From: a virus
DNA: 64,000 nt
Virus record (IMG/VR): IMGVR_UViG_3300046167_000876
Reading direction: 5' to 3' (one strand)
Shown here: positions 9,086-44,242 of the stretch, in pieces
Numbering within the stretch: position 1 is the stretch's first letter
How the letters are laid out: each line of letters begins with the position of its first letter
The notes under the pieces: model-generated
Told to the model about the DNA's origin: nothing
Databases searched by the model: none
What the model saw: only the letters and a program-made list of their open reading frames with translations
Position numbers and translations under genes: made by a program

Positions 9086-9374
9086 TGCCGTTATTGTAAA
9101 ACCCCAAGAAGTTGAAGAAACTACTTATGGGTCAATTATTGTGCCTGATTTAGGTAAAGATAGAAATGAGCATGGAACTGTAGTAGCAGTAGGTCCTGGT
9201 AAACCAACTGTAACTGGAACTTTTTTACCAACAACTGTAAAGGTTGGGGATAAAGTAGTTTTACCAACAGTAGGTTTTACTAAATTACAACATTTAGGAG
9301 ATGAATATTATATTGGCCCCGAAAATCAAATTTTAGCAAAAATTAACCAAACAGAGAAAAAAGAAGATGAATAA
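9063..9374 (+). CDS. groES: co-chaperonin GroES
   Basis: LFDAVIVKP, mobile loop EETTYGSIIVPD, GTVVAVGPG, VKVGDKV. Confidence 0.92.
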   Translation: MELEALFDAVIVKPQEVEETTYGSIIVPDLGKDRNEHGTVVAVGPGKPTVTGTFLPTTVKVGDKVVLPTVGFTKLQHLGDEYYIGPENQILAKINQTEKKEDE

Positions 9375-14755: not shown

Positions 14756-14956
14756 ATGAGTTCAACAAAAAACCAAACACTAACTAGTGTTAAAGTCCAA
14801 ACCCCTTTATTTGAGGAATTTAAAATTGAATGTGTAAAGCGTAAATTTTCATTTCAAAAACTTGCTGATCGTGCTTTGTTTTTGTATCTTACAGATGAAG
14901 ATTTTCGTAAAAAAATTACAAATCAAATTAACCTCCAAATAAAAAAGAATGGATAG
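14756..14956 (+). CDS. small DNA-binding protein (ribbon-helix-helix-like)
   Basis: LTSVKV strand followed by two helices; heads the glycosylation operon. Confidence 0.55.
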   Translation: MSSTKNQTLTSVKVQTPLFEEFKIECVKRKFSFQKLADRALFLYLTDEDFRKKITNQINLQIKKNG

Positions 14957-27127: not shown

Positions 27128-27158
27128 TTGTTTACCTAATCTCTTTTTCATATATTTA
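27127..27158 (+). promoter_or_regulatory. -33/-7 promoter
   Basis: GTTG-N20-TATATTTA. Confidence 0.5.
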
Positions 27159-29735: not shown

Positions 29736-30176
29736 ATGTTATACGAATTTAAAAATTATAATAAACACGGTAATGTAAGGACAAGGATAGTACCTGGTCC
29801 CAAGGGTAAAGCATTTAGTGTTAATCCAAAAGGTTTAGGTAATTATATTGGTGTTAGAGTATTCAAATATGAATATAAACATGAACTATTACCTCCAAGT
29901 TTATTAAGTATAGGTGGTAAAAGATATATTGTTCCTACTTGGCAAGAAGTACTACCAGAAACTGAATTGAGTGATATAAAATGGATCAAACCAAAACCAA
30001 AGGTTAAACAAGAACCAATTATTGAGACCCATATTAGCAGTAGCAACGCAAATAAAACGTATAAAACAATATACTACCCAGAATCAGGTAAATTCCATTG
30101 CGATTGTCCAGGTAGATGGAGAGCGTTTGATAACCGTTGTAAACACATAAAATCATTAGAAAAAAAAGTAAAGTAA
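29736..30176 (+). CDS. SWIM zinc finger protein
   Basis: C-terminal CDC...CKH. Confidence 0.7.
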   Translation: MLYEFKNYNKHGNVRTRIVPGPKGKAFSVNPKGLGNYIGVRVFKYEYKHELLPPSLLSIGGKRYIVPTWQEVLPETELSDIKWIKPKPKVKQEPIIETHISSSNANKTYKTIYYPESGKFHCDCPGRWRAFDNRCKHIKSLEKKVK

Positions 30177-30263
30177 TGCGCGGGAAATTTTGATACCCGG
30201 GCTAGGGTTCGTATATTTACCACGTTGATGCAGTTAAGCATCACGTTAAAACCAATAAGAGTT
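30169..30263 (+). promoter_or_regulatory. repeated promoter/5'-hairpin cassette, copy 1
   Basis: AAAGTAATGCGCGGG, TTTG-N19-TATATTTA, hairpin TGATGC-AGTTAA-GCATCA, then GAGTT-ATG. Confidence 0.8.
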
Positions 30264-30482
30264 ATGTATATTCAAGTCAAAAACACAACAAAGAAAAGAA
30301 ACAACCAATTTAGAGTTCAAACAATGTCTGCTGGATTAAAAGAAATTAAATCTAGAGGATGGATTGTTAATGACTGTAAATTTGAGCAATTAAGAGATGA
30401 ATTAGTTACTAATAAGTACAAAGAATTAGATGGTAGAATGAATACCAGAGGTAAACAATTTGCACAAAGAGCTGGATTATAA
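30264..30482 (+). CDS. hypothetical protein
   Basis: ATG 30264 after the cassette; the listed upstream start lies inside the leader hairpin. Confidence 0.7.
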   Translation: MYIQVKNTTKKRNNQFRVQTMSAGLKEIKSRGWIVNDCKFEQLRDELVTNKYKELDGRMNTRGKQFAQRAGL

Positions 30483-30500
30483 ATTTAAAATAAATAGGTT

Positions 30501-30995
30501 ATGAAATTATCACCAACAAGAGAAATGCTTAGACCATATTCAGATTTGATTTTGGCATCATTAGATGTAAATCAAGTAGCAACTAGAGTAGGTGCTGTGG
30601 CTGAATTTATTTTAATGAACCATTATGGTTGGTTAAAAAATGGAGATATAGGTAACGAAAAAGGATATGATGCTACTGACAAAGATGGCAATAAACATGA
30701 AATAAAAGGTATGTCATATGAAACTAAAACACACTATGTTGCTTATAAACATGCTGTAAAAGGGGATAGATATGATTATTTAAGCATTCTTCATTTTAAT
30801 GAAAAAAGGGTAGCACATATTCCTAGAGAAGAAATAAATAAATTTATTGAAGAAAATACATTACCAGGTAGAAAAACTAAATCATTACGTTTATGTTTTA
30901 GTGATCCTATTTTAACTAAACTTGGGAAACCAAGAAAAAAGTCATTATTTTTAGCATTATTTTTAAAATACGAAGATAAACAATTTACATTTTAA
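30501..30995 (+). CDS. PD-(D/E)XK restriction-endonuclease-like protein
   Basis: GAVAE...KGYDATDKDGNKHEIK. Confidence 0.6.
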   Translation: MKLSPTREMLRPYSDLILASLDVNQVATRVGAVAEFILMNHYGWLKNGDIGNEKGYDATDKDGNKHEIKGMSYETKTHYVAYKHAVKGDRYDYLSILHFNEKRVAHIPREEINKFIEENTLPGRKTKSLRLCFSDPILTKLGKPRKKSLFLALFLKYEDKQFTF

Positions 30996-30996
30996 T

Positions 30997-31389
30997 ATGA
31001 GTAGAGGTAGACCAAGTGAACAAGTAGAAAGATTAGATAAATGGACTATAGACAGTACTGATTATGATGGATCTAGATCAATTATTAAATTTGATAGATC
31101 CAAATCAGCAAATGGTCCTTATTCATGGGAAAATATCCCACCTAAAGGGTTTAGACAACCTAAACCAAAAATTGATCAACGAATGTATGGTAACAATCCT
31201 GTAGTTGTAGTATTTAAAACATCAAATCGTTCTAATGCCAAAACTAAAATGAAAGTAATTAACAAAAATATTGATTATGTCCTATCAGCTAAAAAAATAC
31301 CAGGAATACCTGCTATTGCTGAATGGCTTGATGTTGGTGTTGGTAAATCATTTGTAAATAAATATAAACAAAAATATAATTTAGCTTAG
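30997..31389 (+). CDS. hypothetical protein
   Basis: Coupled ORF with N-terminal RGRP. Confidence 0.7.
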   Translation: MSRGRPSEQVERLDKWTIDSTDYDGSRSIIKFDRSKSANGPYSWENIPPKGFRQPKPKIDQRMYGNNPVVVVFKTSNRSNAKTKMKVINKNIDYVLSAKKIPGIPAIAEWLDVGVGKSFVNKYKQKYNLA

Positions 31390-31431
31390 TCTTTATATAT
31401 TTATAACAAAATATTAATTAATAAATTTATT

Positions 31432-31734
31432 ATGTTAAAAATTATAGGTCTTATAGTAGTAATTTTAGTAATCGGAGCAGCTGTTTACTATTTTGGTTTT
31501 TATAGAAAAGGTAAAATCAACGATAGAGATGGAGATTATATTCCTGATGAAATCGAAGATGCAGTTGAAGATGTTAAAGAAGTAGTTAAAGAAACTAAAC
31601 GCAGAGCTAAAGCAGTAAAAAAAGAACTTAAGGATGTTGCTGATGCAGCAAAAGAAGTTGTTAATCAAGCTGGTGATGTAGCCGCGGCTGCAAAAGGAAA
31701 ACCAAGAAGAGGAAGAAAACCAAAGAAAAAATAA
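31432..31734 (+). CDS. membrane-anchored protein with coiled-coil and basic tail
   Basis: N-terminal TM helix, DRDGDYIPD, C-terminal KGKPRRGRKPKKK; ATATTTATAA upstream. Confidence 0.7.
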   Translation: MLKIIGLIVVILVIGAAVYYFGFYRKGKINDRDGDYIPDEIEDAVEDVKEVVKETKRRAKAVKKELKDVADAAKEVVNQAGDVAAAAKGKPRRGRKPKKK

Positions 31735-31738
31735 AAAT

Positions 31739-32743
31739 ATGAGCAAATATAATTTAATAGATATTTACGAGCAATATCAAATTGGTTCAGGTTGGACTAG
31801 AGACTTTGATTATGATGGAATGTTAAAAGCCGGACTTAAAACAGGAGTTGATACTGATATTGAGCTTTTAAAGAAAATGGCTGAAGATTATACTGATGTT
31901 AATTATCACAGAGAAGCATCTCATTTATATAACGCTATTGAAGCATTAGAAGAGAATGCTATTAAAGAAGCAAGTATGTTCTTTGGAGATTTTCATGCTG
32001 AAATTGAAGAAACTATGAAAAGCCAAGGTATGGATATTGAACCAACATTAGGTAAATTTATGGCTTCTAAAATGGAAGAAGATAAAGATAAAGAACCTAA
32101 AGATAAAGAACCTAGAGATGGAGTTAAAAGTGCTGCATCTAAACTAGGAATAAAACCAAAGCACGTAAAAGAAGTATCTTTACGTGAAGGATATAGTATT
32201 GAAGGTTTACTTAGTATTCCTTTAAAAGCTAAATTCTTAGAAGCATTTCAAGATTTATATTTTGATTTAGTTGAAGAAGATCCATTTATGGCTGAGGATG
32301 TAGTTGATCATTTAAGTGTTGAAATGTTAAAACATTTAGATGCTATTCAAGCTCAAGGTGATAAATTAGCTGGTATAGAACAAGAAGAATTTATAGCTAT
32401 TGATGAATTAGATAATACTTTAAACATTGATAAAGTAGCATCTCCAGATGCTAAAGCACATGATTATGGGGATGAAATTAAAGGTATATCTGATGAAGAT
32501 GATACTGAAGAAAAATATGCTCATGGAATGGTATTGCCTCTAGAAGAAATGTTTGGTCCTGTTAAGTTCCTTAAGTCTAAAGGTATCGATGATGATATAA
32601 TTGCAGATTTTATGAAAACCCACGCCGAAGATATTGTAGGTGCTAGTGAAGATGAAATCATGGATGAATTTGAAAACTTTAGATCAGTAAACTATGATTA
32701 TATAGATGAAGATTTAAGGACACATTTTAAAAGGTTTATATAA
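31739..32743 (+). CDS. acidic hypothetical protein (possible virion internal protein)
   Basis: 334 aa, E/D-rich, short KDKEP duplication. Confidence 0.65.
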   Translation: MSKYNLIDIYEQYQIGSGWTRDFDYDGMLKAGLKTGVDTDIELLKKMAEDYTDVNYHREASHLYNAIEALEENAIKEASMFFGDFHAEIEETMKSQGMDIEPTLGKFMASKMEEDKDKEPKDKEPRDGVKSAASKLGIKPKHVKEVSLREGYSIEGLLSIPLKAKFLEAFQDLYFDLVEEDPFMAEDVVDHLSVEMLKHLDAIQAQGDKLAGIEQEEFIAIDELDNTLNIDKVASPDAKAHDYGDEIKGISDEDDTEEKYAHGMVLPLEEMFGPVKFLKSKGIDDDIIADFMKTHAEDIVGASEDEIMDEFENFRSVNYDYIDEDLRTHFKRFI

Positions 32744-32753
32744 ACGCTTTCCC

Positions 32754-32852
32754 GGGAGGGCATGGCTGGGGTATTGGAGAGGAAATCCCGTCTCTTGGCA
32801 TTAATTTGGCAACGCGGTGGCATTCTTACGCCCTTTCGTTTGACGCCCTCCC
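32754..32852 (+). ncRNA. candidate structured non-coding RNA, family unknown
   Basis: GC-rich island closed by GGGAGGGC/GCCCTCCC, internal hairpin, followed by an intrinsic terminator. Confidence 0.55.
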
Positions 32853-32860
32853 TCATATAC

Positions 32861-32898
32861 AGAAAAAGGAGCTATCTAGCTCCTTCTTTTGTCTTTTT
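32861..32898 (+). terminator. intrinsic terminator
   Basis: AAGGAGCT-ATCT-AGCTCCTT followed by CTTTTGTCTTTTT. Confidence 0.75.
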
Positions 32899-32909
32899 AT
32901 ATGTAAAAA

Positions 32910-32984
32910 TTTGGTTACCTGGGATATCTTTCGTATATTTACCCTGTTGATAATTAAGTCAACGCATTAAATAGAGGTTATATT
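32910..32984 (+). promoter_or_regulatory. repeated promoter/5'-hairpin cassette, copy 2
   Basis: TTTG-N20-TATATTTA, hairpin GTTGAT-AATTAA-GTCAAC. Confidence 0.8.
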
Positions 32985-33272
32985 ATGAAAACATTTGACG
33001 ATTTAGAATTTACAAAACATAGTGTTACTAAAAAAGCTATTATGGCATCACTTGAACTTAAACCTAATGTGTTTATATCAGTAGTTGCAGGTGAAGGAAT
33101 GTACAGTACATCTAGAAAAGGTGTTAAAGCCGAATGTACTAAAGTTGAAGATGCTTCTTCATTTGAAGTTGCCATTATAGATGAAAATTTACCTGATGAC
33201 CAACAACAATGGGATGTTAATGGTTGGCAGACAAGAGAAGATATTAATAAATTAATAATTGAGAACTCATGA
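32985..33272 (+). CDS. hypothetical protein (MKTFDDLEF...DVNGWQTREDI type)
   Basis: First gene after the cassette. Confidence 0.75.
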   Translation: MKTFDDLEFTKHSVTKKAIMASLELKPNVFISVVAGEGMYSTSRKGVKAECTKVEDASSFEVAIIDENLPDDQQQWDVNGWQTREDINKLIIENS

Positions 33273-33505
33273 GTAAAGAAAAAAGATATGTAGTGACAAT
33301 GGATATGTACGTTTATGCTGATAACGATTATATGGCTAAAAAACGAGCTAATGATTTAAGATTATCAATAGAAAATAGACGACATTCAGGTGATGTTAAA
33401 ATAACTGAAATTGGTGAACAACCATTTGCTAGTTTTAATTATCGTAAATTAGATGATCCAACATTCACACCTAAAGATTTGTCTAACGAACCGTTACCAT
33501 TTTAA
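33269..33505 (+). CDS. hypothetical protein
   Basis: ATGA overlap; C-terminal PLPF. Confidence 0.7.
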   Translation: MSKEKRYVVTMDMYVYADNDYMAKKRANDLRLSIENRRHSGDVKITEIGEQPFASFNYRKLDDPTFTPKDLSNEPLPF

Positions 33506-33506
33506 T

Positions 33507-33644
33507 ATGAAAAAAGGAGATTGGATATTATATAATAATAAACGCAAAAAGTGCTTTGGTATACACCATAATGGTAATATTCTAATTAAGATGAATGGTA
33601 CTATAGTTCAAGTACATAAAGAAAAAATAAGAACTCCCGCGTAA
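33507..33644 (+). CDS. hypothetical protein (45 aa)
   Basis: MKKGDWILY... start chosen directly after the previous stop. Confidence 0.55.
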   Translation: MKKGDWILYNNKRKKCFGIHHNGNILIKMNGTIVQVHKEKIRTPA

Positions 33645-33647
33645 AAA

Positions 33648-33722
33648 TTTGGTTACCCGGGCTAGAGTTCGTATATTTACCACGTTGATGCAGTTAAGCA
33701 CAACATTAAATTAATTAAGGTT
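33648..33722 (+). promoter_or_regulatory. repeated promoter/5'-hairpin cassette, copy 3
   Basis: TTTG-N20-TATATTTA; 33654-33700 matches 30194-30240 at 46 of 47 bases; hairpin GTTG(A)TGC-AGTTAA-GCACAAC. Confidence 0.85.
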
Positions 33723-34469
33723 ATGACAAATACAGAAACAATGCAATTAGATTTATTTCATGGAGTAGTATTAACTACTGAACAACAAAAAGAAGTTAAT
33801 ACATTTATTAAAAGACAAGCTGAAAGAGCAGTTGATAGTCAAAATGATGTTAATAGAAAAATGTTATTATTGGATGAAGCAGGTTTTGTTCAAGGAGTTG
33901 ATTATGATAGTAATTTTGAAGTTTACGAGGTTACTAAAGAAGCATCATTTGGTTATTCATATAATAATACAAATTATGAGCATGAAGTTACTTACATGAA
34001 TGCTGTAGGTGGTGTTTATCTTAAAGTTAATACCATTAAAGAGGGTAAAATAAAAGAATATAAAGCTTCAGTTGATAGAGAAGGTGGTAAATTAATGTGT
34101 ACTAATATTACTCAACAATATAGATATTATAAGCCAAGTTCATTGCTTACTAAATTTAATGAGCATAATGAGCGTAAAATAAATGAGCTTGAACATAATA
34201 ATAAGCAAAAAATTGCTTTAGATATTATAGTTGCTAAGTACCAGAAATTATATCCTAAAGCTGAGGTTAAAATTAGTTCTGATTATTATAGAAGATCTTA
34301 TCATAGTTTTCCAACTGTTAAAGTTAAATTTGAATCAGGTAGTTCAGTTGAATTTACTTTAGGTTATGGTGATGAAATGGAAAAAGAAAGATTTCATAAA
34401 AAATATGATGCTCAACATGAAACAACAAAAGATTTATTAGATAGATTTAATAATCAAAAAGCTAAGTAA
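33723..34469 (+). CDS. hypothetical protein
   Basis: 248 aa ORF directly after the cassette. Confidence 0.75.
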   Translation: MTNTETMQLDLFHGVVLTTEQQKEVNTFIKRQAERAVDSQNDVNRKMLLLDEAGFVQGVDYDSNFEVYEVTKEASFGYSYNNTNYEHEVTYMNAVGGVYLKVNTIKEGKIKEYKASVDREGGKLMCTNITQQYRYYKPSSLLTKFNEHNERKINELEHNNKQKIALDIIVAKYQKLYPKAEVKISSDYYRRSYHSFPTVKVKFESGSSVEFTLGYGDEMEKERFHKKYDAQHETTKDLLDRFNNQKAK

Positions 34470-34470
34470 T

Positions 34471-34611
34471 ATGAAAAATGAAAATTGGGATCCAGAAAAA
34501 TTTCAGGGTAAATCTAAAAAACAAGTAGAGTCTTCCACAATAGGATGTTTTATAGGAAGTATAGGTATATTTTTAGTTTTATTATGGTTATTAATGTTAA
34601 AAAATTTATAA
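34471..34611 (+). CDS. small membrane protein (46 aa), not in ORF track
   Basis: MKNENWDPEKFQG... with a C-terminal TM helix; fills the gap exactly. Confidence 0.6.
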   Translation: MKNENWDPEKFQGKSKKQVESSTIGCFIGSIGIFLVLLWLLMLKNL

Positions 34612-34612
34612 T

Positions 34613-34921
34613 ATGGTAAGGTATAGAAATAGATACGGTGATGAATACACATTTACTAAACAAAAAGATGGTAATGTATTATGGGAAGGTGATTTTGAAT
34701 ACATAAGAGCTGGGGATGACTTTATAGATCCATCAGGTGGACCATTTATTAGAGTAGGTCAAATGTTATCTCATATTATACATGGGGATGAAATGAATGT
34801 AATAGTAGAAGGTTTTACTAATACAGAAAAAGGTATATTAATTAATACAAAACCTCATGATTATGATCCTAAAGACTTTAGTCATTTAGAAGATAGGGGT
34901 ATAATTGGAGGTATAATTTAA
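34613..34921 (+). CDS. hypothetical protein (NRYGD...DPSGGPFI motif)
   Basis: Coupled ORF. Confidence 0.7.
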   Translation: MVRYRNRYGDEYTFTKQKDGNVLWEGDFEYIRAGDDFIDPSGGPFIRVGQMLSHIIHGDEMNVIVEGFTNTEKGILINTKPHDYDPKDFSHLEDRGIIGGII

Positions 34922-34930
34922 ATTAAATAT

Positions 34931-35158
34931 ATGAAAGTAGAAAGACAAGTTTTACATAATTGCTTGGATAAGGCAAAAAGTTTTTATAAATTAGGGGAAC
35001 GAGATAAGGCAAGAGACTATTGTGATATGGGAATTGGTTATGTTGCTGCTAAAAAAGAAGATGGTGCTGATGGGGAAGACTTAATTGAAGGAGTTAGAAT
35101 CAATTTATGGTTAGAACGTTTTTGGATGTTTTTAGAAAATAAAAATTTAATGTTATAA
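34931..35158 (+). CDS. hypothetical protein
   Basis: Coupled ORF. Confidence 0.65.
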   Translation: MKVERQVLHNCLDKAKSFYKLGERDKARDYCDMGIGYVAAKKEDGADGEDLIEGVRINLWLERFWMFLENKNLML

Positions 35159-35159
35159 T

Positions 35160-35348
35160 ATGGAAAACGAAGCAAATAAATGGTGGGAAATTTCAGTAGC
35201 ATGGAAATGGCCACATGAAGGATTTACAGTTGGTTATGATTTAATTGAACCAATAGAAGAAGATGAAGCTAAATATTTTAGTTTTAATTTATATTTAGGA
35301 TTATTATCTGTACTTATTAATTGGGGAAAACATAGTTGGAATGAGTAG
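35160..35348 (+). CDS. hypothetical protein
   Basis: Coupled ORF. Confidence 0.6.
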   Translation: MENEANKWWEISVAWKWPHEGFTVGYDLIEPIEEDEAKYFSFNLYLGLLSVLINWGKHSWNE

Positions 35349-35493
35349 AATAGAAGAATTAGTATATAGTGCTCATGAATATGGTAAACGAGCTCAATTG
35401 TTTGATGAGGTTTCTAAGATAAAATTAGAATCTCCAACAATGCAATTAGAAGAAGTTTATGATAAAGCATATCAAAATGTAATGAATACTTAA
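35341..35493 (+). CDS. hypothetical protein (50 aa), not in ORF track
   Basis: MSRIEELVYSAHEYGKR...; fills the gap before fabH. Confidence 0.6.
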   Translation: MSRIEELVYSAHEYGKRAQLFDEVSKIKLESPTMQLEEVYDKAYQNVMNT

Positions 35494-35495
35494 AT

Positions 35496-36515
35496 ATGAG
35501 TAATTCTAAAATTATAGGATTAGGACATTATGTCCCAAATAATATTATTACTAACAACGATTTATCTGAAATGTTAAATACATCAGATAAATGGATTCAA
35601 AGTCGTACTGGAATTAAAGAACGTAGATGGGTTACTAAAGAAAGTGGTGATACAGCTGCTACAATGGGAACTAAAGCAGCAAAAATAGCTATTGAAAATG
35701 CTGGTCTAAAAAAAGATGATATTGATTTCATTATATTTGCTACTATGACACCTGATTATTACTTTCCTGGTTGTGGTGTTCAAGTCCAGAATGAATTAGG
35801 TATTAAAAATATAGGTGCTTTAGATGTTAGAAACCAATGTTCAGGTTTTATTTATGCCTTATCTGTTGCTGATAAGTTTATTAAAACAGATACTTATAAA
35901 AATATATTAGTAATAGGAGCAGAATTACATTCAGGTGGATTAGATAAAACACCAAGAGGTAGAGATGTAAGTGTAATATTTGGAGATGGAGCGGGTGCTT
36001 TAGTATTATCTAGAACAGACAAAAACAAAGGTATATTATCTACTCATTTACACTCAGATGGAAAATACGCTGAAGAATTAGCTGTAGTAGGACCTTCACC
36101 TAGACATGGTGTTGGAAAAGATAATCATTGGATCAAAAGTGTTCAAGATAAACCTGAGGAAACATTTTATTTTCCTTATATGAATGGGAAATCAGTATTT
36201 AAACATGCCGTTTTTAGATTTAGTGATGTAATTACTGAAGGATTATCTGTAAATCAATTAAACCCATCTAATGTTGATCTATTTATTCCACATCAGGCAA
36301 ACTTAAGAATATCTGAATTTGTGCAAAAGCAATTTGACTTCAGAGATGACCAAGTATTTAACAACATACAAAAATATGGTAATACAACTGCAGCATCAAT
36401 TCCTATAGCATTAAGTGAAGCATTTAAACAGGGTAAAATTAAAGATAATAATATAATAGTATTAGCTTCATTTGGTAGTGGTTACACTTGGGGTAGTATA
36501 ATAATAAAGTGGTAA
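35496..36515 (+). CDS. fabH: beta-ketoacyl-ACP synthase III
   Basis: WIQSRTGIKERR, NQCSGF (catalytic Cys), FGDGAGA, MNG, PHQAN, YGNTTAASIP, FGSGYTWG. Confidence 0.93.
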   Translation: MSNSKIIGLGHYVPNNIITNNDLSEMLNTSDKWIQSRTGIKERRWVTKESGDTAATMGTKAAKIAIENAGLKKDDIDFIIFATMTPDYYFPGCGVQVQNELGIKNIGALDVRNQCSGFIYALSVADKFIKTDTYKNILVIGAELHSGGLDKTPRGRDVSVIFGDGAGALVLSRTDKNKGILSTHLHSDGKYAEELAVVGPSPRHGVGKDNHWIKSVQDKPEETFYFPYMNGKSVFKHAVFRFSDVITEGLSVNQLNPSNVDLFIPHQANLRISEFVQKQFDFRDDQVFNNIQKYGNTTAASIPIALSEAFKQGKIKDNNIIVLASFGSGYTWGSIIIKW

Positions 36516-36868
36516 TGAATATAGAAAAATTATTAATAGGTATATTTTGGTTTATTTTGGGTCATGTAGCAGTGTTTTTTCAATTAAACGGTCAATTTAA
36601 ATGGGAATGGTTTAAAAAAAATGAATTCATATTAGCATTAGCTGGTCTTATAATATCATATTTTTATATATGGGGTACAAAACATACCGTAGAAGGGTTT
36701 AATGGTTTATTATGGCCTGCTAGATTTATAGGATTTAGTATAGGAATATCCGTTTATGCTTTGGGTGTTGGATATTTCTTTAAAGAGGGTATTACAAATA
36801 AAACATTTGTAAGTTTACTATTATGTGTTATATTAGTAGCAATTCAAGTATTATGGAAAACTAAATAA
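36509..36868 (+). CDS. multi-pass membrane protein (SMR/DMT-like topology)
   Basis: Four hydrophobic helices. Confidence 0.65.
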   Translation: MVMNIEKLLIGIFWFILGHVAVFFQLNGQFKWEWFKKNEFILALAGLIISYFYIWGTKHTVEGFNGLLWPARFIGFSIGISVYALGVGYFFKEGITNKTFVSLLLCVILVAIQVLWKTK

Positions 36869-36869
36869 A

Positions 36870-37142
36870 ATGGCAGCAAGAAAAAAAATTACATTTAAAC
36901 GATGGCTACTCAGAAGATTAGTATATGTAAATAAACTCACCCCATATCAGAAATTTGCTTCACGAGTAGGTTATATGGGTAGTGGGTTTTTAATAGCAGC
37001 ACAATGGACAATTGAACCATATTTATACGTGATAGGGTTTTGTTTTGTTATAGTACAAACATCATCAAGAAAACAATGGAACTTAGTTGCATTAAATATA
37101 AATGGATTAATAGCTTGGATTACACACCTCTTAAATACATAA
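36870..37142 (+). CDS. small membrane protein
   Basis: Basic N-terminus, 2-3 TM helices, KQWNLVALN. Confidence 0.65.
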   Translation: MAARKKITFKRWLLRRLVYVNKLTPYQKFASRVGYMGSGFLIAAQWTIEPYLYVIGFCFVIVQTSSRKQWNLVALNINGLIAWITHLLNT

Positions 37143-37144
37143 AA

Positions 37145-37282
37145 ATGGACCTACAAGAAAGAACAAACAAAATTAAAGAATTAAGTAGCATGATAGTGGA
37201 TCTAAAAAAGAATAGAACAGTAGATTCTAAAAAAACCATTCAAAAACTACAACAAGAAATAGATAAGCTAATATATGATTAA
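37145..37282 (+). CDS. small coiled-coil protein
   Basis: MDLQERTNKIKELS...; start chosen after the previous stop. Confidence 0.55.
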   Translation: MDLQERTNKIKELSSMIVDLKKNRTVDSKKTIQKLQQEIDKLIYD

Positions 37283-37484
37283 TAGAGAATTAATAACTAA
37301 GGATAATAAAATGTATGAAGTAGTATCATCTGTTTCTTCACATATGTTTCTTAATAAAGATAAATCTCTAAACCAACAAGTATTAGGATTGTATGTTAAT
37401 GAATATAAAGGAGATAGAGTGTTACAACGTGAAGATAAATTCTTAATATGTAAGCAAATAGAAGAAGCACAAATAATAGAATAA
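37275..37484 (+). CDS. hypothetical protein
   Basis: Coupled ORF. Confidence 0.65.
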   Translation: MINRELITKDNKMYEVVSSVSSHMFLNKDKSLNQQVLGLYVNEYKGDRVLQREDKFLICKQIEEAQIIE

Positions 37485-38109
37485 CAATTTGGATAAGTAA
37501 AAAAATAATTGTATATTATGATTAATATAGGTAAAGAATGGCGTTGGATGGATGATGAGTTGTTAGAACAAGGTGTAGATGATTTTATATCATATTCAAC
37601 AGGTAGTGGAGCAGTAGAAGATTAGTTATGAGAAAAAAAAGAGAATATAGAGGTTGTGAATGGGAAAGTCCAATATTTAGAGAAATAATGAGAGAAAAAT
37701 GGGCTAAAGAAGGTAAAACGAAAATAAACGAATATAAAACAAAAAGAGGCAAACGAAGCTCTTTATAACACCACACAATAACCTAATACGTATATACAAA
37801 CATGAGTAAATCTATAAATAACTTAATAAAGATATTAGAACAAGATATCAAATTAAATGATGATCAACCACTTACTACTAAAAAATTAAAACGTATATTG
37901 GAGGTAGCAGTAGAAAATAAATCAGAATAATATGTTGGTAGGAGTAGGTATAGCAATATTTATTGTAGTTTGGATTTGGATAATTTGGGAACTTTATACT
38001 GCTCCACTTATTGATGATGTTGGAAATATTGATGTTACAGATGTTGACATTGAAGATGACTTGTGGGATAAGAACCACATTGAAGATATGGATTAAAAAA
38101 TAAATTAAA

Positions 38110-38268
38110 ATGCCGTTATATAAAATAGGAATTACCCCAGTAGATAGTGAAATTGAACCTTATGTAGTTAAAATTGAGACAGACGACATTGAATGGTCTA
38201 TGGAACAATATCAACGTAATAGAGAACCACTTGAGTGGGAGATGTTGAATTGGAATATTAGAGTATAA
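38110..38268 (+). CDS. hypothetical protein (52 aa), not in ORF track
   Basis: MPLYKIG...IETDDIEWSMEQYQRNR; TAATG overlap with the next gene. Confidence 0.6.
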   Translation: MPLYKIGITPVDSEIEPYVVKIETDDIEWSMEQYQRNREPLEWEMLNWNIRV

Positions 38269-38465
38269 TGTCGTGTTCAAAACATGACATAGAAGAAGAA
38301 TATGTATTTGAGTTTAAAGGTAAACGATATGAATGCATAGGTGAAGATAGGGAATTTCAAATTACACAATTCAGATTTGCAATAAAGGATAAACAATGGC
38401 TAACGGTCAGTAATCGAATAATAAATCAACTTAAATGGGGTCCAAACATAAGGATAGTAAATTAA
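38268..38465 (+). CDS. hypothetical protein
   Basis: Coupled ORF. Confidence 0.6.
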   Translation: MSCSKHDIEEEYVFEFKGKRYECIGEDREFQITQFRFAIKDKQWLTVSNRIINQLKWGPNIRIVN

Positions 38466-38806
38466 ATTATTGTGAGTGGTGTGGTAATAAAACACCATTA
38501 GGTAGGACAATGCAAGCGGAAACACCAATATTGGAATTTATGGAGGAAAAGATTGATTTGATTGGTAGAGAAGATATTTGGGGTGTTCATGGTGATTGGA
38601 GTACGGTTGATATTGATAGTGATCTGGAAGCTGAGTTGTTGATATATGATGAGATGTTGAATACGGTTAGTAAACGAACTGTATGTGAAGTGTGTTTAGT
38701 ACAAGATAATAAAATGTATAAAAAATATTATAGCGGAATGATAGGGGAGGTAAATAACGATTCAGATGACGACGATGAAGATCATTATATAATAGAGTTA
38801 GAGTAG
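38435..38806 (+). CDS. hypothetical protein with two CxxC pairs and an acidic tail
   Basis: CEWC, CEVC, DSDDDDED. Confidence 0.65.
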   Translation: MGSKHKDSKLNYCEWCGNKTPLGRTMQAETPILEFMEEKIDLIGREDIWGVHGDWSTVDIDSDLEAELLIYDEMLNTVSKRTVCEVCLVQDNKMYKKYYSGMIGEVNNDSDDDDEDHYIIELE

Positions 38807-38830
38807 AAACAATCAACAATAAAATAATAT

Positions 38831-39004
38831 ATGGGTAAAAATGGAGGAATATTTCGATTTAAGTATACTGAATTATTAAGTAATGGTGTTGAACAGGAAG
38901 GATCATTGATTATAGAAACAAAAGATGTGGTTCGTTCAATTGGAAGATTTGGTGAGAGTAGACAATTAATAGATTTAGATGTAAAACAATTAAACAATAA
39001 ATAA
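38831..39004 (+). CDS. hypothetical protein (57 aa), not in ORF track
   Basis: MGKNGGIFRF...IETKDVVRS; similar to 38110..38268. Confidence 0.55.
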   Translation: MGKNGGIFRFKYTELLSNGVEQEGSLIIETKDVVRSIGRFGESRQLIDLDVKQLNNK

Positions 39005-39594
39005 CATGAGTAAAAACAGTCACAAAGCGTTGTACGAGCAGTTGATGCAATGGTTACCAACGTTGAAAACTAAACGTAAAAAACCGGTTAAACGAGGCAA
39101 TACACAACCTAGGTTTATCGATTATAATGTTAAAATTAAAAATGGATCAAATGCGAGACGATAATAAACAATTGTATAAACAAATTGGTAGTATGTTTGG
39201 GGATCTTGTAATGGCCTTGGTTGTTGGTATGTTAGGAGTGGTTGCTTTGTTTGGAATCGTGAGTGCAATATGGAATTTGATTGCATAAGTGTGACAAACC
39301 ATATACAAAGTATGGAATATGGATATTGAGATATTTAAACATCCGTATATTTGGTTATAGTAGGTGACAAATAGTTAATGTGTTGTGTGGGTTGAGATGA
39401 AGGTGGTGTTAACCCATTCACATAGGCAACCACGCCTCTTCGACTTACCTTAAAGTATATACGTCGAATTGCATTATCCGCAATTGGCACACGTGTACAT
39501 TCTTTTTATTCACAATGGCCTGGCATTAAAAATGAGGATATGACAAAGCCAAATACATTTGTAATAAGGCATGAACACATTGTTCACGAATAAA

Positions 39595-39667
39595 TTTGGA
39601 TACACGGGATAGAGTTCGTATATTTACCATGTTGAGCAATTAAGCATCAGCAATAAATAAAGGTTAT
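39595..39667 (+). promoter_or_regulatory. repeated promoter/5'-hairpin cassette, copy 4
   Basis: TTTG-N20-TATATTTA, hairpin GTTGAGC-AATTAA-GC(A)TCAGC. Confidence 0.8.
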
Positions 39668-39817
39668 ATGTCAACAATGCACTCGTACACACTATTAGAA
39701 TCAATCGTTTATGAATTACAATCAAAAGGCGCTATCGTCGATCCATGTGTTGTAGATGATTTAATTACCTGTATCACTACCACTAAAAAAGTTGAATACA
39801 ATAAAATAAAATTATAA
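39668..39817 (+). CDS. hypothetical protein (49 aa), not in ORF track
   Basis: First ATG after the cassette. Confidence 0.55.
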   Translation: MSTMHSYTLLESIVYELQSKGAIVDPCVVDDLITCITTTKKVEYNKIKL

Positions 39818-39832
39818 TATTAAATAAAGGTT

Positions 39833-40018
39833 ATGAAAAGTATAATTAAAGGCAGTGAACCAATCCCAAAGTATGTGTTAACAGTTGATATAAACATTGG
39901 CTATGAAAACATATGGCGTGGTGATGACATTAAAGAGGGTATACACTATAGAGATATCGCAATTAAACATTGGGGGCAAAGACGCTGTAGCGCTATTGCC
40001 AGCCGAATAACATTATAA
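39833..40018 (+). CDS. hypothetical protein
   Basis: AAAGGTT-ATG start context. Confidence 0.6.
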   Translation: MKSIIKGSEPIPKYVLTVDINIGYENIWRGDDIKEGIHYRDIAIKHWGQRRCSAIASRITL

Positions 40019-40324
40019 CAAACATATTACTTACTACCGTGGTACTCCTTACCGCGGTGGCACTTCTGTACACCGTACTTACTACCTTACCCGTACATAC
40101 TGATTACATACTTAATACATAAGTTATGCCGGCGTACCGCCGCATATATATGTACATAATCCCATACGCGTTGGTATCCATATAGCGTGTATATGTGAAG
40201 AAAAGGGTGTAGACCAACACATAAAGCTCGTACGATCTTACACCATCGAATTGTATATACTTATATCGCAAAGCCTATTTAGGCCAAAAAATACAAAATG
40301 TCAAAGATCCGAAATTTTTTTTTC

Positions 40325-40943
40325 TTAAAAATTTTCGCCGTCGATAAATTCTTCAAATAAATCTATGGCTTTATCCCATGGAACTAAGTTATCCCAATCA
40401 TCCTTATTATAACCTAATATAAAACATAGCGTCCACCTTCCTTCTTCGGTTGGATTATATGAAGAATGGAATGTACCCACGTTAACTAAACTTGGTTGAT
40501 CGGTATTTGCTTCATATACCAACTCACATTCTTCTTCTTTCAATACTATACTCCTATGATGTCTATCAGAGAAGTTTTCTGACTTGACATTATCATACTC
40601 ATCTATGCTCCTATAGTTACTATTATATTCTTCTTTTTCAGTGAAAATTGGGGGCATTCCACCATCTTGTTGTTCCCTCCGGAGGACCCCATGAAACATT
40701 AATTTTAACATGATCATCTTGTTTCCAATCATCAATGTGTATAGGTAGTTTTTTACCCCCAGGAGTATAAAATAATTCAGTATTAACTATAATCAAACCT
40801 AGTTGATCAGCTAGTTTTTCTATGTTCTCATCTTTATGGTAGGGTATATCATAATGTTTTAAATCTTTGGGTTTAACATTACAAATTTGAGGTTTTCGTA
40901 TTTCAAAAGGTAAATTAAGATATCTATGATATTTATTAAGCAT
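40325..40943 (-). CDS. cupin/2OG-Fe(II) oxygenase-like protein; the two listed ORFs joined across one extra base near 40650
   Basis: LPIHIDD (HxD) in the first part and TFHSSYN...RWTL in the second; removing one base of the G5 run restores one frame. Confidence 0.6.
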
Positions 40944-41679
40944 ACCCCAGAATTTTTTTAATATGGTTTTTTCTTATCTCATCAGTATTATCATCATATA
41001 ATTCATGTGCTAATTCTAAAATCTTTTTTTGTTCTTCTTCCTCAATCTCTTTAGTTATTACAGAGTTATCTATTTTAACCTCTAAACCAATATAGGGGTA
41101 ATATTTATCTTCATTATAGTGATTATCTTTATTCCAGACAGGACTAGATTCAATGGCTTTACAATCAGGATGTAACCAACCCTTTTCTTTCGCTACATTT
41201 TCATCAACATGGTATTCCATAGACACCATAACCATATTTTTTCTACCCTTTATTTTTTTAATCCCATAACGAGATATACCTCTAACTTCTACCCATACTT
41301 CATTTACGTCAATTTCTTTTTCACTTGTGGGTTTTTGTAACATTACATTAAAACGGACAGCAATTTTCCCTTTTAAATTGTCACTTCTAATTGGTTCTTC
41401 TTCAAACCCACTAGAATACCACGAAATATTATAATTATAGTATGGATTTAGTTCGGTTTCTAAATCTAACCCATAATGGGACAAGATAATTTGTCCTATA
41501 ATCTCTATACTAGTATAATTTAACCCTAAACCATTAATAAATTCTTCTTCATTCTTAGAAAAATTATGAGTCCTACCATTTTCACCTATTGGATTTAAAT
41601 AACTATCCCTGTTTTTTTTATTTAAAATCCAATTTAATGTAGGTTCGGTTAAATCCTTATCAATTATTAGTTTTTCCAT
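40936..41679 (-). CDS. hypothetical protein, degenerate 2OG-Fe(II) oxygenase-like
   Basis: NISWYSSG...VRFNVMLQKP scaffold without an HxD motif. Confidence 0.55.
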   Translation of the reverse strand: MEKLIIDKDLTEPTLNWILNKKNRDSYLNPIGENGRTHNFSKNEEEFINGLGLNYTSIEIIGQIILSHYGLDLETELNPYYNYNISWYSSGFEEEPIRSDNLKGKIAVRFNVMLQKPTSEKEIDVNEVWVEVRGISRYGIKKIKGRKNMVMVSMEYHVDENVAKEKGWLHPDCKAIESSPVWNKDNHYNEDKYYPYIGLEVKIDNSVITKEIEEEEQKKILELAHELYDDNTDEIRKNHIKKILGYA

Positions 41680-42087
41680 TTAATAATTACTTGTCATGTT
41701 TGGATCTTGCGCCATAAATTTTATGGTGTTTTTTAATTGCATTATTTCATTAAATGCATCCGTAACATTTTTGTTAAACACTTTATTCGATTGTTCAATT
41801 TTACTCACATTCCCATATGCTACCGTATCTAATTCTTTTATACGCTTATTGATACTACTCAGACTCTCATACTGATCTTTCTCCATATTCGCCTGAATAT
41901 CTTTAACTAATACTTTCAGATCATCTATTGCATCATCCACATCCGCATTTCTAATAGAGGAGATATTTGATTGTGATTGATGTCGCGCCAGCAATTCCGT
42001 ATGTGAAGATTTTACCGAACGTAATAACTTAACCCCATATAGTATCCCTACCGATAGTACTCCACTAATAAAATATAATAATTCCAT
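41680..42087 (-). CDS. membrane-anchored coiled-coil protein
   Basis: N-terminal TM helix followed by heptad-rich region. Confidence 0.65.
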   Translation of the reverse strand: MELLYFISGVLSVGILYGVKLLRSVKSSHTELLARHQSQSNISSIRNADVDDAIDDLKVLVKDIQANMEKDQYESLSSINKRIKELDTVAYGNVSKIEQSNKVFNKNVTDAFNEIMQLKNTIKFMAQDPNMTSNY

Positions 42088-42090
42088 AAT

Positions 42091-42408
42091 TTACAAATAT
42101 TCGTTTTTTACAATTTTTTCTATGTCAAACCATAGTGTTTCTAAATTAATTCTCGCTTTATAATACCCTCTTTCAAAATATGCAATTGTAGGTACTTCTT
42201 CTATAGTATTTGGATATAATAATACTGATCTAGGAGAAGATTGTACATCTACATATGCTATTGGAATTAAATCACTCACATTTTTTAATTTAGGTTTTAT
42301 TCTTTTACAAGCTCCACAACCCATAGACCCAAATACTACTAGTATTTTAGGTGCGGATAAAAAATTAGAGAGATTATCCCTTGTTATTTCAATAAAGTTT
42401 TTATTCAT
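42091..42408 (-). CDS. thioredoxin-fold protein
   Basis: VFGSMGCGACK, EVPTI; start placed at ATG 42408 because the listed upstream extension overlaps a promoter. Confidence 0.75.
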   Translation of the reverse strand: MNKNFIEITRDNLSNFLSAPKILVVFGSMGCGACKRIKPKLKNVSDLIPIAYVDVQSSPRSVLLYPNTIEEVPTIAYFERGYYKARINLETLWFDIEKIVKNEYL

Positions 42409-42412
42409 GTGG

Positions 42413-42444
42413 TTAATATACAAACCCCAATTCAAGTATACACG
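42413..42444 (-). promoter_or_regulatory. -33/-7 promoter for the minus-strand island
   Basis: CGTG-N20-TATATTAA on the reverse strand, 4 nt before ATG. Confidence 0.5.
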
Positions 42445-42557
42445 CTATTTTTAGTATTTTTTTATATATATTGTATATACGTATTTATGGATATGAGCAT
42501 GTATAAGAGAAAGAGTCGTTTTTCGCCCCTTACATATTTATAATAAAAAACAATCAT

Positions 42558-42914
42558 ATGGCATCATATACTGCAAAACAATTAAATGGAAAAGGAACAC
42601 CTATTGAAGAATTAACAGCAGGTACATCTTATGGTTTTGTAATTACTAATCTAAATAGTACGGGATCATCTTATTTTACTGTAGAAACAGTTAGAAATTT
42701 AAGTGGATCATATGCGGGGCAACCTACTAATGCTTTAGGGACTTATTCTGATTTTAATGGGATTGATAATAATACTTTAATTACTTCATCTTATATTTCA
42801 TCAGTTGTAGTTCCAAAAGGACAAGGGAGATATACTTTTACACCCACCGGAACTGTAGATGCTGGTTCTTCTATGTTAAGAGCTACAGGTGGGATTTCTC
42901 TTGTGATTTCTTAA
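42558..42914 (+). CDS. probable virion-associated beta-rich protein
   Basis: S/T/G-rich with TGS/SGS/TSS motifs; ATATTTATAA upstream. Confidence 0.6.
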   Translation: MASYTAKQLNGKGTPIEELTAGTSYGFVITNLNSTGSSYFTVETVRNLSGSYAGQPTNALGTYSDFNGIDNNTLITSSYISSVVVPKGQGRYTFTPTGTVDAGSSMLRATGGISLVIS

Positions 42915-43008
42915 AAGTAATGCGCAGGAGGTTTGGCTACCCAGGATATCATTCGTATATTCACCATGTTGTGATAATGAAGTTACAGCACTAAAAACAA
43001 TAAAGGTT
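42913..43008 (+). promoter_or_regulatory. repeated promoter/5'-hairpin cassette, copy 5
   Basis: AAAAGTAATGCGCAGG, TTTG-N20-TATATTCA, hairpin GTTGTGAT-AATGAA-GTTACAGC. Confidence 0.8.
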
Positions 43009-43353
43009 ATGACAGTTCAAGAAGTTAAAAATTTCAGAGTTGATTTTGAAAATGCAGTTACAGAATTGCAAAAAAAGTATGGTGTTAATATTAGCACAGG
43101 TGCTATCCGTTATTCAGATAGTGAATTAAGATTTAAAGTTACCGCTCGTAAAGGTAAAGTTACTCCTAAATTAACTAAAGAAGCTTTCCAAGTGGGAGAT
43201 GTTGTTAAAATTAATCATAAAAGTGCTATTGGTAAGCAATTTAAAATTGAAAAAATTATGACTAAAAACATTAGGGTTACAGAAATTAATCTTCCTAAAG
43301 GTCGTATTGGAGGTCAAGTTAGAGTTTCACCAAGTTTATTAGAAAAGCTTTAA
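43009..43353 (+). CDS. hypothetical protein with C-terminal SH3/KOW-like region
   Basis: FQVGDVVKI...VRVSPSLL. Confidence 0.7.
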   Translation: MTVQEVKNFRVDFENAVTELQKKYGVNISTGAIRYSDSELRFKVTARKGKVTPKLTKEAFQVGDVVKINHKSAIGKQFKIEKIMTKNIRVTEINLPKGRIGGQVRVSPSLLEKL

Positions 43354-43432
43354 AAGTAATGCACGGGAAGCTTGGCTTCCCGGGCTATCTTTCGTATATT
43401 CAAGTATATTAATAATTAAATAAATCAAAGTT
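43352..43432 (+). promoter_or_regulatory. repeated promoter cassette, copy 6 (no GTTG hairpin)
   Basis: AAAAGTAATGCACGGG, CTTG-N20-TATATTCA, CCCGGG in the spacer. Confidence 0.75.
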
Positions 43433-44242
43433 ATGTTAAATTACACAAATTCAGAGTTTAAAAGTTTAGAAGAGTTAAAAGAAATCGCTCCAAGTATTTT
43501 TACCCAAGTTGGTTCAGAAAATACAAGTGATAAGTACACCCACATTCCAACTGATCAAGTGATCAAAGATATGGAATTATTAGGTTGGGGAGTTGTTGAT
43601 GCAAAAGAAGTTAAATCTAGAAAAGAATCAACAAATGGTTTCCAAAAACATTTAGTTGTTTTTAGAAATAATGATGTTGTTATTAATGGTGAAGATGGTG
43701 ATACTGTTTACCCACAAGTATTACTTACAAATTCACATGATGGAAAAAATTCATTCCAATTTACAGCTGGATTGTTTAGAATGATTTGTGAAAATGGTTT
43801 AGTTATAGCTACAGATACATTTGAGGATATTAAGATTCGTCATATGGGTTATGATTTTTCAACTTTACAAGATACTATTAAAGAAATGGTTGAAAAATTA
43901 CCTTTAACTGTTGAAGCAATGAATAAGATGAAAGAAGTTGAATTACAAGAAGAACAAATGTTTGATCTTGCTAAATCGTTTCTAAATATTAGAGTAGAAG
44001 GTACGGAAAATACCTTTGATGATCAAGCAATTGAAGAAGTTTTAGAAGCTCAACGTTCAAAAGATGAAGGTAATATGCTTTGGGAAGTATTTAATCGTGT
44101 TCAGGAAAATATTATTGAAGGTAATTTCGAATATATTACAAAAACAGGAAAAAAACGTCAAGCTCGAGTTATTAAAAACTTTAAGCAAGATCAGATTGTA
44201 AATAAAAAAATGTTTAGTAAAGCTTTAGAATTTGCAGCATAA
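43433..44242 (+). CDS. DUF932/DUF945-family protein
   Basis: APSIF, SDKYTHIPT, LTNSHDG, AGLFRMICENGL, LWEVFNRVQEN. Confidence 0.85.
   Translation: MLNYTNSEFKSLEELKEIAPSIFTQVGSENTSDKYTHIPTDQVIKDMELLGWGVVDAKEVKSRKESTNGFQKHLVVFRNNDVVINGEDGDTVYPQVLLTNSHDGKNSFQFTAGLFRMICENGLVIATDTFEDIKIRHMGYDFSTLQDTIKEMVEKLPLTVEAMNKMKEVELQEEQMFDLAKSFLNIRVEGTENTFDDQAIEEVLEAQRSKDEGNMLWEVFNRVQENIIEGNFEYITKTGKKRQARVIKNFKQDQIVNKKMFSKALEFAA

Follow-up and report, generated by a model that had tools for sequence, protein, structure and literature searches.

Exchangeable leader hairpins downstream of a repeated early-type promoter in a probable T4-like phage genome

The 64-kb stretch of viral DNA analyzed here (IMG/VR record IMGVR_UViG_3300046167_000876; the whole stretch is referred to as the window; G+C content ∼29%) contains a repeated promoter cassette, five of whose six copies place a small hairpin directly downstream of the promoter, at the predicted 5′ end of the transcript. 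Pairing statistics across related viral contigs point, with a clear direction, to a sense-strand, RNA-type structure under selection at that end, and hairpins of unrelated sequence occupy the same position and replace one another at orthologous genes. These elements are best explained, with middling confidence, as the transcribed 5′-leader stem-loop of an early-promoter cassette of the promoter-early stem-loop (PeSL) type, with a generic role at the 5′ end (mRNA protection or insulation) rather than as a signal whose loop is read by a specific protein.

A hairpin at the predicted start of the transcript

The repeat unit, ∼100 bp long, consists from 5′ to 3′ of TTTGG/TTGG, a spacer TAC(C/A)(C/T)(G/A)GG(A/C)TA... 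(TACCCGGG), TTCGTATATT(T/C)ACC, the hairpin, (N)TTAAA, an AU-rich stretch and (A)A(A/G)GTTATG. Its 3′ end is the AAAGGTTATG start, the ATG of (A)A(A/G)GTTATG being the start codon, and cassettes 2 and 4 have two extra bases (AT) between the start motif and the start codon. An optional GC stem-loop over the −35 element precedes TTGG, which is followed by a 17-nt spacer and TATATT. A promoter pattern blind to the hairpin has exactly six copies in the window, all within 13 kb, against a chance expectation of 0.02; at the sixth match (43371-43400) the promoter is present and the leader is unstructured. Judged by sequence, the promoter fits a sigma-70-type layout (TTGGYT or TTGATA, 16-17 nt, TATATT) and, about equally well, the Bacteroidota −33/−7 layout (TTTG/TAnnTTT(A)), and both layouts put the predicted +1 ∼6-7 nt past TATATT. 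The six cassettes are as follows.

Cassette 1, 30190-30266, plus strand: −35-like TTGATA at 30190-30195, −10-like TATATT at 30212-30217, ATG at 30264 of a 72-amino-acid (aa) ORFan
Cassette 2, 32911-32987, plus strand: TTGGTT, 17-nt spacer, TATATT at 32934-32939, ATG at 32985
Cassette 3, 33649-33725, plus strand: TTGGTT, 17-nt spacer, TATATT at 33672-33677, ATG at 33723; heads the module 33638-34926
Cassette 4, 39596-39670, plus strand: TTGGAT, 17-nt spacer, TATATT at 39619-39624, ATG at 39668 of a 49-aa open reading frame (ORF)
Cassette 5, 42933-43011, plus strand: TTGGCT, 17-nt spacer, TATATT at 42956-42961, ATG at 43009
Cassette 6, 43364-43435, plus strand: promoter as in the others, leader hairpin absent, strong GC stem-loop over the −35, ATG at 43433 of a DUF932 gene

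The hairpins of cassettes 1 to 5, all of the class termed H1 below, begin GTTG at 30224, 32946, 33684, 39631 and 42968, in each case 6 nt after the invariant TATATT and 4 nt after TATATT(T/C)A; overall, the hairpins start 5-7 nt after TATATT. All five read as given in a preliminary description of this DNA, which had placed them 4 nt after the −7 box, and they are listed here as 5′ arm / loop / 3′ arm.

Leader hairpin 1 (H1), 30222-30246, plus strand: ACGU(U)GAUGC / AGUUAA / GCAUCACGU; core from G30224; −9.8 kcal/mol with outer pairs
Leader hairpin 2 (H1), 32945-32964, plus strand: UGUUGAU / AAUUAA / GUCAACG; a U·G pair closes the loop
Leader hairpin 3 (H1), 33684-33704, plus strand: GUUG(A)UGC / AGUUAA / GCACAAC
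Leader hairpin 4 (H1), 39630-39652, plus strand: UGUUGAGC / AAUUAA / GC(A)UCAGCA
Leader hairpin 5 (H1), 42967-42990, plus strand: UGUUGUGAU / AAUGAA / GUUACAGCA; three G·U pairs; sense −8.4, antisense −0.5 kcal/mol

At all five sites RNAfold predicts a single hairpin whose loop has 6 nt, with energies of −4.1 to −7.4 kcal/mol (z −2.6 to −5.6 relative to shuffles); one or two additional outer pairs bring these to −5.7 to −9.8 kcal/mol. When the full leader was folded together with the first codons, the H1 hairpin was the sole stable structure and the region of the start codon was unpaired in 5/5 window leaders. A covariance model built from other copies matched only these five sites in the 64-kb window; the hairpin thus occurs only with the promoter. 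Rfam returned no match, either for the whole window at gathering thresholds or for 30000-43600 at E≤1, and searches for boxA gave matches at chance level only, none of them inside a leader. The leader hairpins are followed by A-rich sequence with no U-tract, and none of the five was flagged in a terminator scan; judged by sequence, they are therefore not intrinsic terminators.

Selection on pairing was assessed across the wider set of cassettes described in the next section. In cassettes chosen by their promoter, mean folding energy was −4.65 kcal/mol for the sense strand, vs. −2.84 for the antisense strand and −1.50 for shuffled sequences (Wilcoxon 2e-9 and 8e-13). Because MAFFT alignments of the hairpins missed the structure, the analysis relied on counts centred on the loop (made in Python) and on an alignment that was fitted to a covariance model. 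Among 38 distinct H1 variants, 171/190 inner pairs were canonical, compared with 118 ± 7 when the 3′ arms were permuted (0/2000 permutations reached the observed count), and sliding the partner by 1-3 nt reduced pairing from 91% to 20-46%. Stem ranks 2-5 each hold three to five canonical pair types, and G·U pairs outnumber A·C mismatches 42 to 7. In the H1 subset fitted to the model, 99.3% of cells were paired, three pairs had changed on both sides and the covariation score was 0.40 vs. 0.22 (0/500), in an alignment that leans towards structure by construction; the covariance model (R1) itself derives from a single H1 subclass, too narrow a basis for gathering all H1 copies. The covarying stems with G·U pairs reported in the preliminary description are thus borne out, as is its suggestion of selection on RNA structure: the excess of G·U over A·C and the compensatory changes together argue for selection on a single-stranded molecule of the sense strand.

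The conserved hexaloop A(A/G)U(U/G)AA of that description held up in part. Column identity in H1 is higher in the loop (0.81) than in the stems (0.43 and 0.52), and loop positions 3 (U) and 5 (A) and the 3′ closing G are near-invariant in the 38 variants; the loop is nevertheless not invariant (AGTTAA, AATTAA, AATGAA, GATTAA, AATAAA, ATTTAG and others), and the other hairpin classes have unrelated loops of 3-6 nt. The same heptamer as the H1 loop with its closing G (AATTAAG, AATAAAG) also stands before GTTATG at start sites (AATAAAG 64 times, AATTAAG 22 times).

Hairpin classes and their exchange among relatives

Related cassettes were collected by scanning IMG/VR with TACNNGGNNTANNNTTCGTATATT, a promoter pattern without any hairpin positions. 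The scan recovered more than 115 viral contigs, some >160 kb, and with ≤2 mismatches allowed these hold ∼118 distinct cassette-plus-gene combinations, a count that leaves out the MKQKELF family described below. Leaders in this set are bimodal, 67% having a hairpin and the others lacking any structure. In the hairpin-bearing cassettes (n=78) the first paired base lies 5 nt after TATATT (interquartile range 5-6), and the hairpin ends 17 nt before the ATG (range 13-27). At least five classes of unrelated sequence occur at this same offset, every one with a median of 8 bp and ∼−7 kcal/mol; across the classes the loops have 3-6 nt.

H1, the window's type, GUUG..hexaloop..CAAC: 44 copies
H2, GUUCGAA/UGG/UUCGAGC: 24 copies
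H3, GUUAGU/GAGGUU/GCUAAU: 2 copies
H4, AAGUGAGAC/ACGAA/GUUUCAUUU: 3 copies
H5, GUUGUU/AAUAAU/GACAAC: 2 copies

Common to all classes is G-U-(U/A) at position 6-7 past TATATT, found in 89/118 cassettes, which makes the conserved G the likeliest +1.

The classes are exchanged at orthologous genes. Ten gene families have three or more cassettes, and in nine of them more than one leader class was found; leaders of the gene whose product begins MMSPE..., for example, carry H1 (12 times), H4 (twice), H2 (once), H5 (once) or no hairpin (twice), and orthologs of the window gene at 30264 have H1 in the window, a different H1 variant in contig L019 and H2 in contig L103. Unrelated classes that are alike in offset, length and energy, and exchangeable at orthologous genes, are what a comparison would give where structure and not sequence is kept. 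This swapping indicates that selection maintains a hairpin at this position and not a particular loop, and it weighs against the general function being that of a signal read through its loop, boxB/nut-like or otherwise. Presence or absence of a hairpin is partly tied to the gene, since the DUF932 gene (window 43433-44242) has a hairpin-less cassette in 10/11 relatives. At two loci, near 14760 (minus strand) in L086 and similarly near 232 (plus strand) in L106, the start site follows straight on the 5′ half of the hairpin, as though a deletion had removed what lay between the two repeats.

A generic 5′-end role and its alternatives

PeSL cassettes were described in the T4-type phages RB49/phi1, PST/T4 and nt-1/KVP40 (Arbiol et al., 2010, PMC2839356; Comeau et al., 2014, PMC4122927) as ∼100-bp repeats that combine a strong sigma-70 promoter and a ribosome site with a stem-loop whose place relative to the promoter varies. 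They are found beside genes without a known family, in variable parts of the genome, where modules are shuffled through them (PMC2839356; PMC4122927). The cassettes in the window resemble them as a repeated intergenic module of ∼100 bp with a predicted early-type promoter, a stem-loop with G·T pairs, and a ribosome site and ATG at the 3′ end; they likewise precede genes of no known family in a variable region of a probably T4-like genome, where modules have been moved or replaced at cassettes. Many relatives moreover have a classical stem-loop over the −35, or over the −10 in the MKQKELF family. A stem-loop adjoining or overlapping the promoter is thus present as in PeSLs, in the form of a leader hairpin in 5/6 window copies; however, by sequence criteria the leader hairpins are not terminators or attenuators as PeSL stem-loops are, whereas the stem-loop over the −35 of cassette 6 was flagged as terminator-like. 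They also differ in lying within the transcribed leader (predicted +1 to ∼+22), in being AU-rich, of ∼−7 kcal/mol and without a U-tract, and in often being accompanied by a second stem-loop, and their predicted role is to structure the 5′ end of their own mRNA, not to terminate upstream transcripts. The promoter here is equally Bacteroidota-like (TTTG...TAnnTTTA), and the host phylum is probably different.

Under the preferred reading, transcription would start at the conserved G 6-7 nt after TATATT, and the message would begin base-paired, with no free 5′ nucleotides. By analogy with cellular leaders, the stem-loop would hinder decay that depends on the 5′ end, namely pyrophosphate removal followed by attack of the RNase E/G or RNase J type; it would also keep the ribosome-loading region independent of upstream context, and the single-stranded, AU-rich linker (∼17 nt) would keep the start site accessible. 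Stem-loops at the 5′ terminus with few unpaired 5′ nucleotides stabilize bacterial mRNAs whatever their sequence, as in ompA and papA (PMC3997798, its references 92-95). The leaders of ompA and papA in Escherichia coli and those of the Bacillus subtilis aprE type (PMC3997798) share with the present ones a 5′-terminal hairpin followed by a single-stranded segment with the ribosome site, and the sequence-independence of the hairpin effect in those systems matches the class swapping here; they differ as single chromosomal genes with measured half-lives, whereas the phage hairpin is a portable part of a repeated promoter cassette with a predicted 5′ end. The 5′ shield proposed in the preliminary description fits the comparative data (unrelated classes of the same offset, size and stability, swapped at orthologs, and a single-stranded start region), and stabilization of messages made early in infection would be the expected effect.

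Several observations weigh against this reading. A third of the cassettes, cassette 6 included, are hairpin-less, so the hairpin is not essential. The greater conservation of the H1 loop than of its stems would not be predicted by a purely generic role. The cassette copies share descent, and the pairing statistics overstate their independence. Finally, +1 is predicted from promoter geometry and the conserved G-U-(U/A), and a start inside or after the stem would break the model.

The conservation of the H1 loop is what would be expected if H1 were a loop-specific operator, its hexaloop A(A/G)U(U/G)AA and closing G being read by a phage or host RNA-binding protein. Such an element would serve translational repression like that by T4 RegA, antitermination or ribosome/S1 standby, and it would mark out the H1 early genes as a co-regulated set. 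The near-invariance of U3, A5 and the closing G, and the recurrence of loop plus closing G (AAUUAAG, AAUAAAG) as the heptamer before GUUAUG at start sites, fit such a role. We nevertheless consider it unlikely, as orthologous genes carry H2, H4, H5 or no hairpin in place of H1, classes with unrelated 3-5-nt loops share its offset, length and stability, the leaders contain no boxA and no Rfam match, and AU-rich heptamers are frequent at a genomic G+C content of 29%; the conserved loop would still leave room for a binder specific to H1 alone. The boxB/nut-like leader put forward in the preliminary description is not supported. A boxB has a ∼5-bp GC stem and a GNRA-like pentaloop and is partnered with boxA and N protein; the window hairpins resemble the nut sites of lambda and P22 as small hairpins early in phage early transcripts, but their loop is not a GNRA-like pentaloop, the loops of all classes are AU-rich and of 3-6 nt, boxA and any Rfam match are missing, the classes are interchangeable and a third of the cassettes have no hairpin. 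The termination activity of PeSL stem-loops in reporter assays, and their occasional position downstream of the −10 (PMC2839356), would suit an attenuator or insulator against read-through from the upstream gene that limits spill-over between cassettes, and the leader hairpin is slightly rarer where a strong upstream GC stem-loop is present (Fisher p = 0.03). That association is not robust (Mann-Whitney p = 0.24, Spearman rho −0.08), however, and the stems are weak (∼−7 kcal/mol), AU-rich, followed by A-rich sequence and never flagged as terminators, while cassette 2 has a canonical terminator as well as its hairpin; attenuation is accordingly regarded as rather improbable.

A highly doubtful alternative is that the hairpin has no role in mRNA and is a by-product of cassette recombination or an element acting only as DNA (an inverted repeat of a mobile module, a crossover point or a single-stranded DNA structure). 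Gene modules that were moved or replaced do have cassettes at their borders, hairpin classes have been redistributed over the genes, the L086 hairpin has been shortened by a fusion of loop and start site, PeSL crossovers have been mapped inside a stem-loop (PMC2839356), and a hairpin in single-stranded non-template DNA would be compatible with the pairing data; yet pairing is specific to the sense strand with compensatory changes, and classes of unrelated sequence have arrived at a common offset, length and energy. Very unlikely is a role in initiation, in which, at a very strong promoter, the G-U-U start and an early RNA hairpin would tune promoter escape or keep the polymerase from backtracking: G-U-(U/A) is kept at the predicted +1 in all classes and PeSL promoters are so strong as to be toxic when cloned (PMC2839356), but hairpin-less cassettes have the same promoter, and an RNA hairpin forms only after ∼30 nt have been made and hence after promoter escape. 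An extension of the preferred reading, speculative and rather improbable in turn, is that the base-paired start marks the phage's own early messages, which would thereby escape a 5′-end-dependent decay that the phage uses or switches on to clear host transcripts. In the same proposal the H1 loop AAU(U/A)AAG, as it shows the same heptamer as the start sites, could be a landing or titration site for the ribosome or S1 in a host that translates without Shine-Dalgarno pairing.

Two other promoter types were considered and set aside. A promoter for a crAss-like virion RNA polymerase, prompted by a 2445-aa ORF, was dropped because the DNA polymerase is T4-like, the large ORF has no PHROG match and, according to the phi14:2 paper, the early transcripts of that phage share no upstream motif. 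An N4-like promoter formed by a DNA hairpin is unlikely, given better pairing on the sense than on the template strand and the sigma-type −35/−10 directly upstream.

Should the generic 5′-end reading prove correct, the cassettes would be a natural, portable unit of promoter, 5′ stabilizer and start site from marine Bacteroidota phages, for a phylum in which expression tools are scarce and translation initiation is unusual. That unrelated hairpins replace one another at a single position amounts to a natural comparative experiment in which selection keeps structure and not sequence. The PeSL concept of regulatory cassettes as recombination seams would also be extended beyond enterobacterial and vibrio phages to a large uncultured marine lineage; new here are the probable host group, the layout with two stem-loops and the large natural data set of hairpin-class swaps.

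Source genome, second stem-loops and gene content

The carrier is probably an uncultured marine lineage of T4-like phages with a flavobacterium (Flavobacteriia) as host, judging from its genes. The family-B DNA polymerase in the window has its best matches mostly among polymerases of T4-type myoviruses (28-33% identity), and its GroEL (9367-10986) is 59% identical to that of the Flavobacterium phage vB_FspM_immuto, a myovirus, which by GroEL is the closest cultured relative found and lacks the cassette; the promoter pattern occurs in it at chance level only. Shine-Dalgarno sequences are missing ahead of most window genes. No DNA match to the cassette region was found among cultured phages, nor any to one cassette in a distant-mode search; with no cultured phage sharing this DNA or the cassette, the Flavobacteriia host is one that we infer. 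Pfam and PHROG scans of the late-region genes returned almost nothing, leaving the structural genes in the window without a family match, and a search of the literature on early promoters of flavobacterial T4-like phages found nothing relevant.

The optional GC stem-loop upstream of the promoter is strong in the window only at cassette 6 (CGGGAAGC/UUG/GCUUCCCG, 43364-43382, −17.9 kcal/mol, flagged as terminator-like), a weaker one lying over the −35 of cassette 3. Its loop contains the −35/−33 TTGG and its 3′ arm is formed by the conserved TACCCGGG spacer, the order being G-tract, loop, C-tract; the arms covary (CGGGAGGC/GCUUCCCG, GCGCGUC/GACGCGC and GCGGUAAC/GUUACCGC; window 43364-43382 and contigs L111, L051, L092, L103, L019, L034 and L098). 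From its sequence it looks like a classical PeSL-type stem-loop that would act as a terminator for upstream transcripts. A separate canonical intrinsic terminator (32866-32885 and a T-run) lies directly upstream of cassette 2.

The TAC(C)CGGG(A/C)TA spacer and the TTCG ahead of TATATT are near-invariant in all six promoter cores (30194-30217 etc.), including those of cassettes 2, 4 and 5, whose upstream stem-loop is weak, and a DNA-binding factor is a possible cause. One degenerate copy of the core was also noted.

Degenerate promoter core GTTTGTATATTAACCAC, 42415-42438, minus strand: three mismatches, weak, no hairpin

It stands directly before the ATG heading the minus-strand gene block 40325-42435, with almost no leader. 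Another arrangement is seen in the cassette of the MKQKELF... gene (L002, L004, L005, L020, L046 and ∼25 other loci), which is missing from the window: TACCCGGAATAT / CTTTCGT / ATATTCCGGGTA forms a 12-bp inverted repeat spanning the spacer and the −10, and the leader is without a hairpin. A further motif, ATATTTATA, occurs at 27152, 31397, 42534, 45231, 47769 and 50975, 10-25 nt before several start codons, and may be the late promoter of the phage; T4 late promoters are TATAAATA. The leaders downstream of ATATTTATA are short, AU-rich and unstructured, which makes the hairpin specific to the early-type promoter class.

Eight of ten genes scanned in the region, including five of the six directly behind cassettes, have no clear Pfam or PHROG family, one of the eight having a borderline PHROG match only (E 9e-4); the 72-aa ORFan at 30264 has no Pfam or PHROG family, and the DUF932 gene at 43433 is the only one of the six with a clear family. 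Gene order is mosaic around the cassettes: the module 33638-34926, which starts with cassette 3, is located elsewhere in L019, L103 and L031, and other modules stand before cassette 6 in L003 and further contigs. Between cassettes 3 and 4, a FabH/KAS III-like gene (35496-36515; Pfam ACP_syn_III, E 1e-26 to 3e-34) is missing from L088 and L025 and likewise unmatched in L019 and L103. Its flanks in L088 meet within 2-3 nt of the gene's ends (35498/36515), indicating a clean, gene-sized insertion or deletion.

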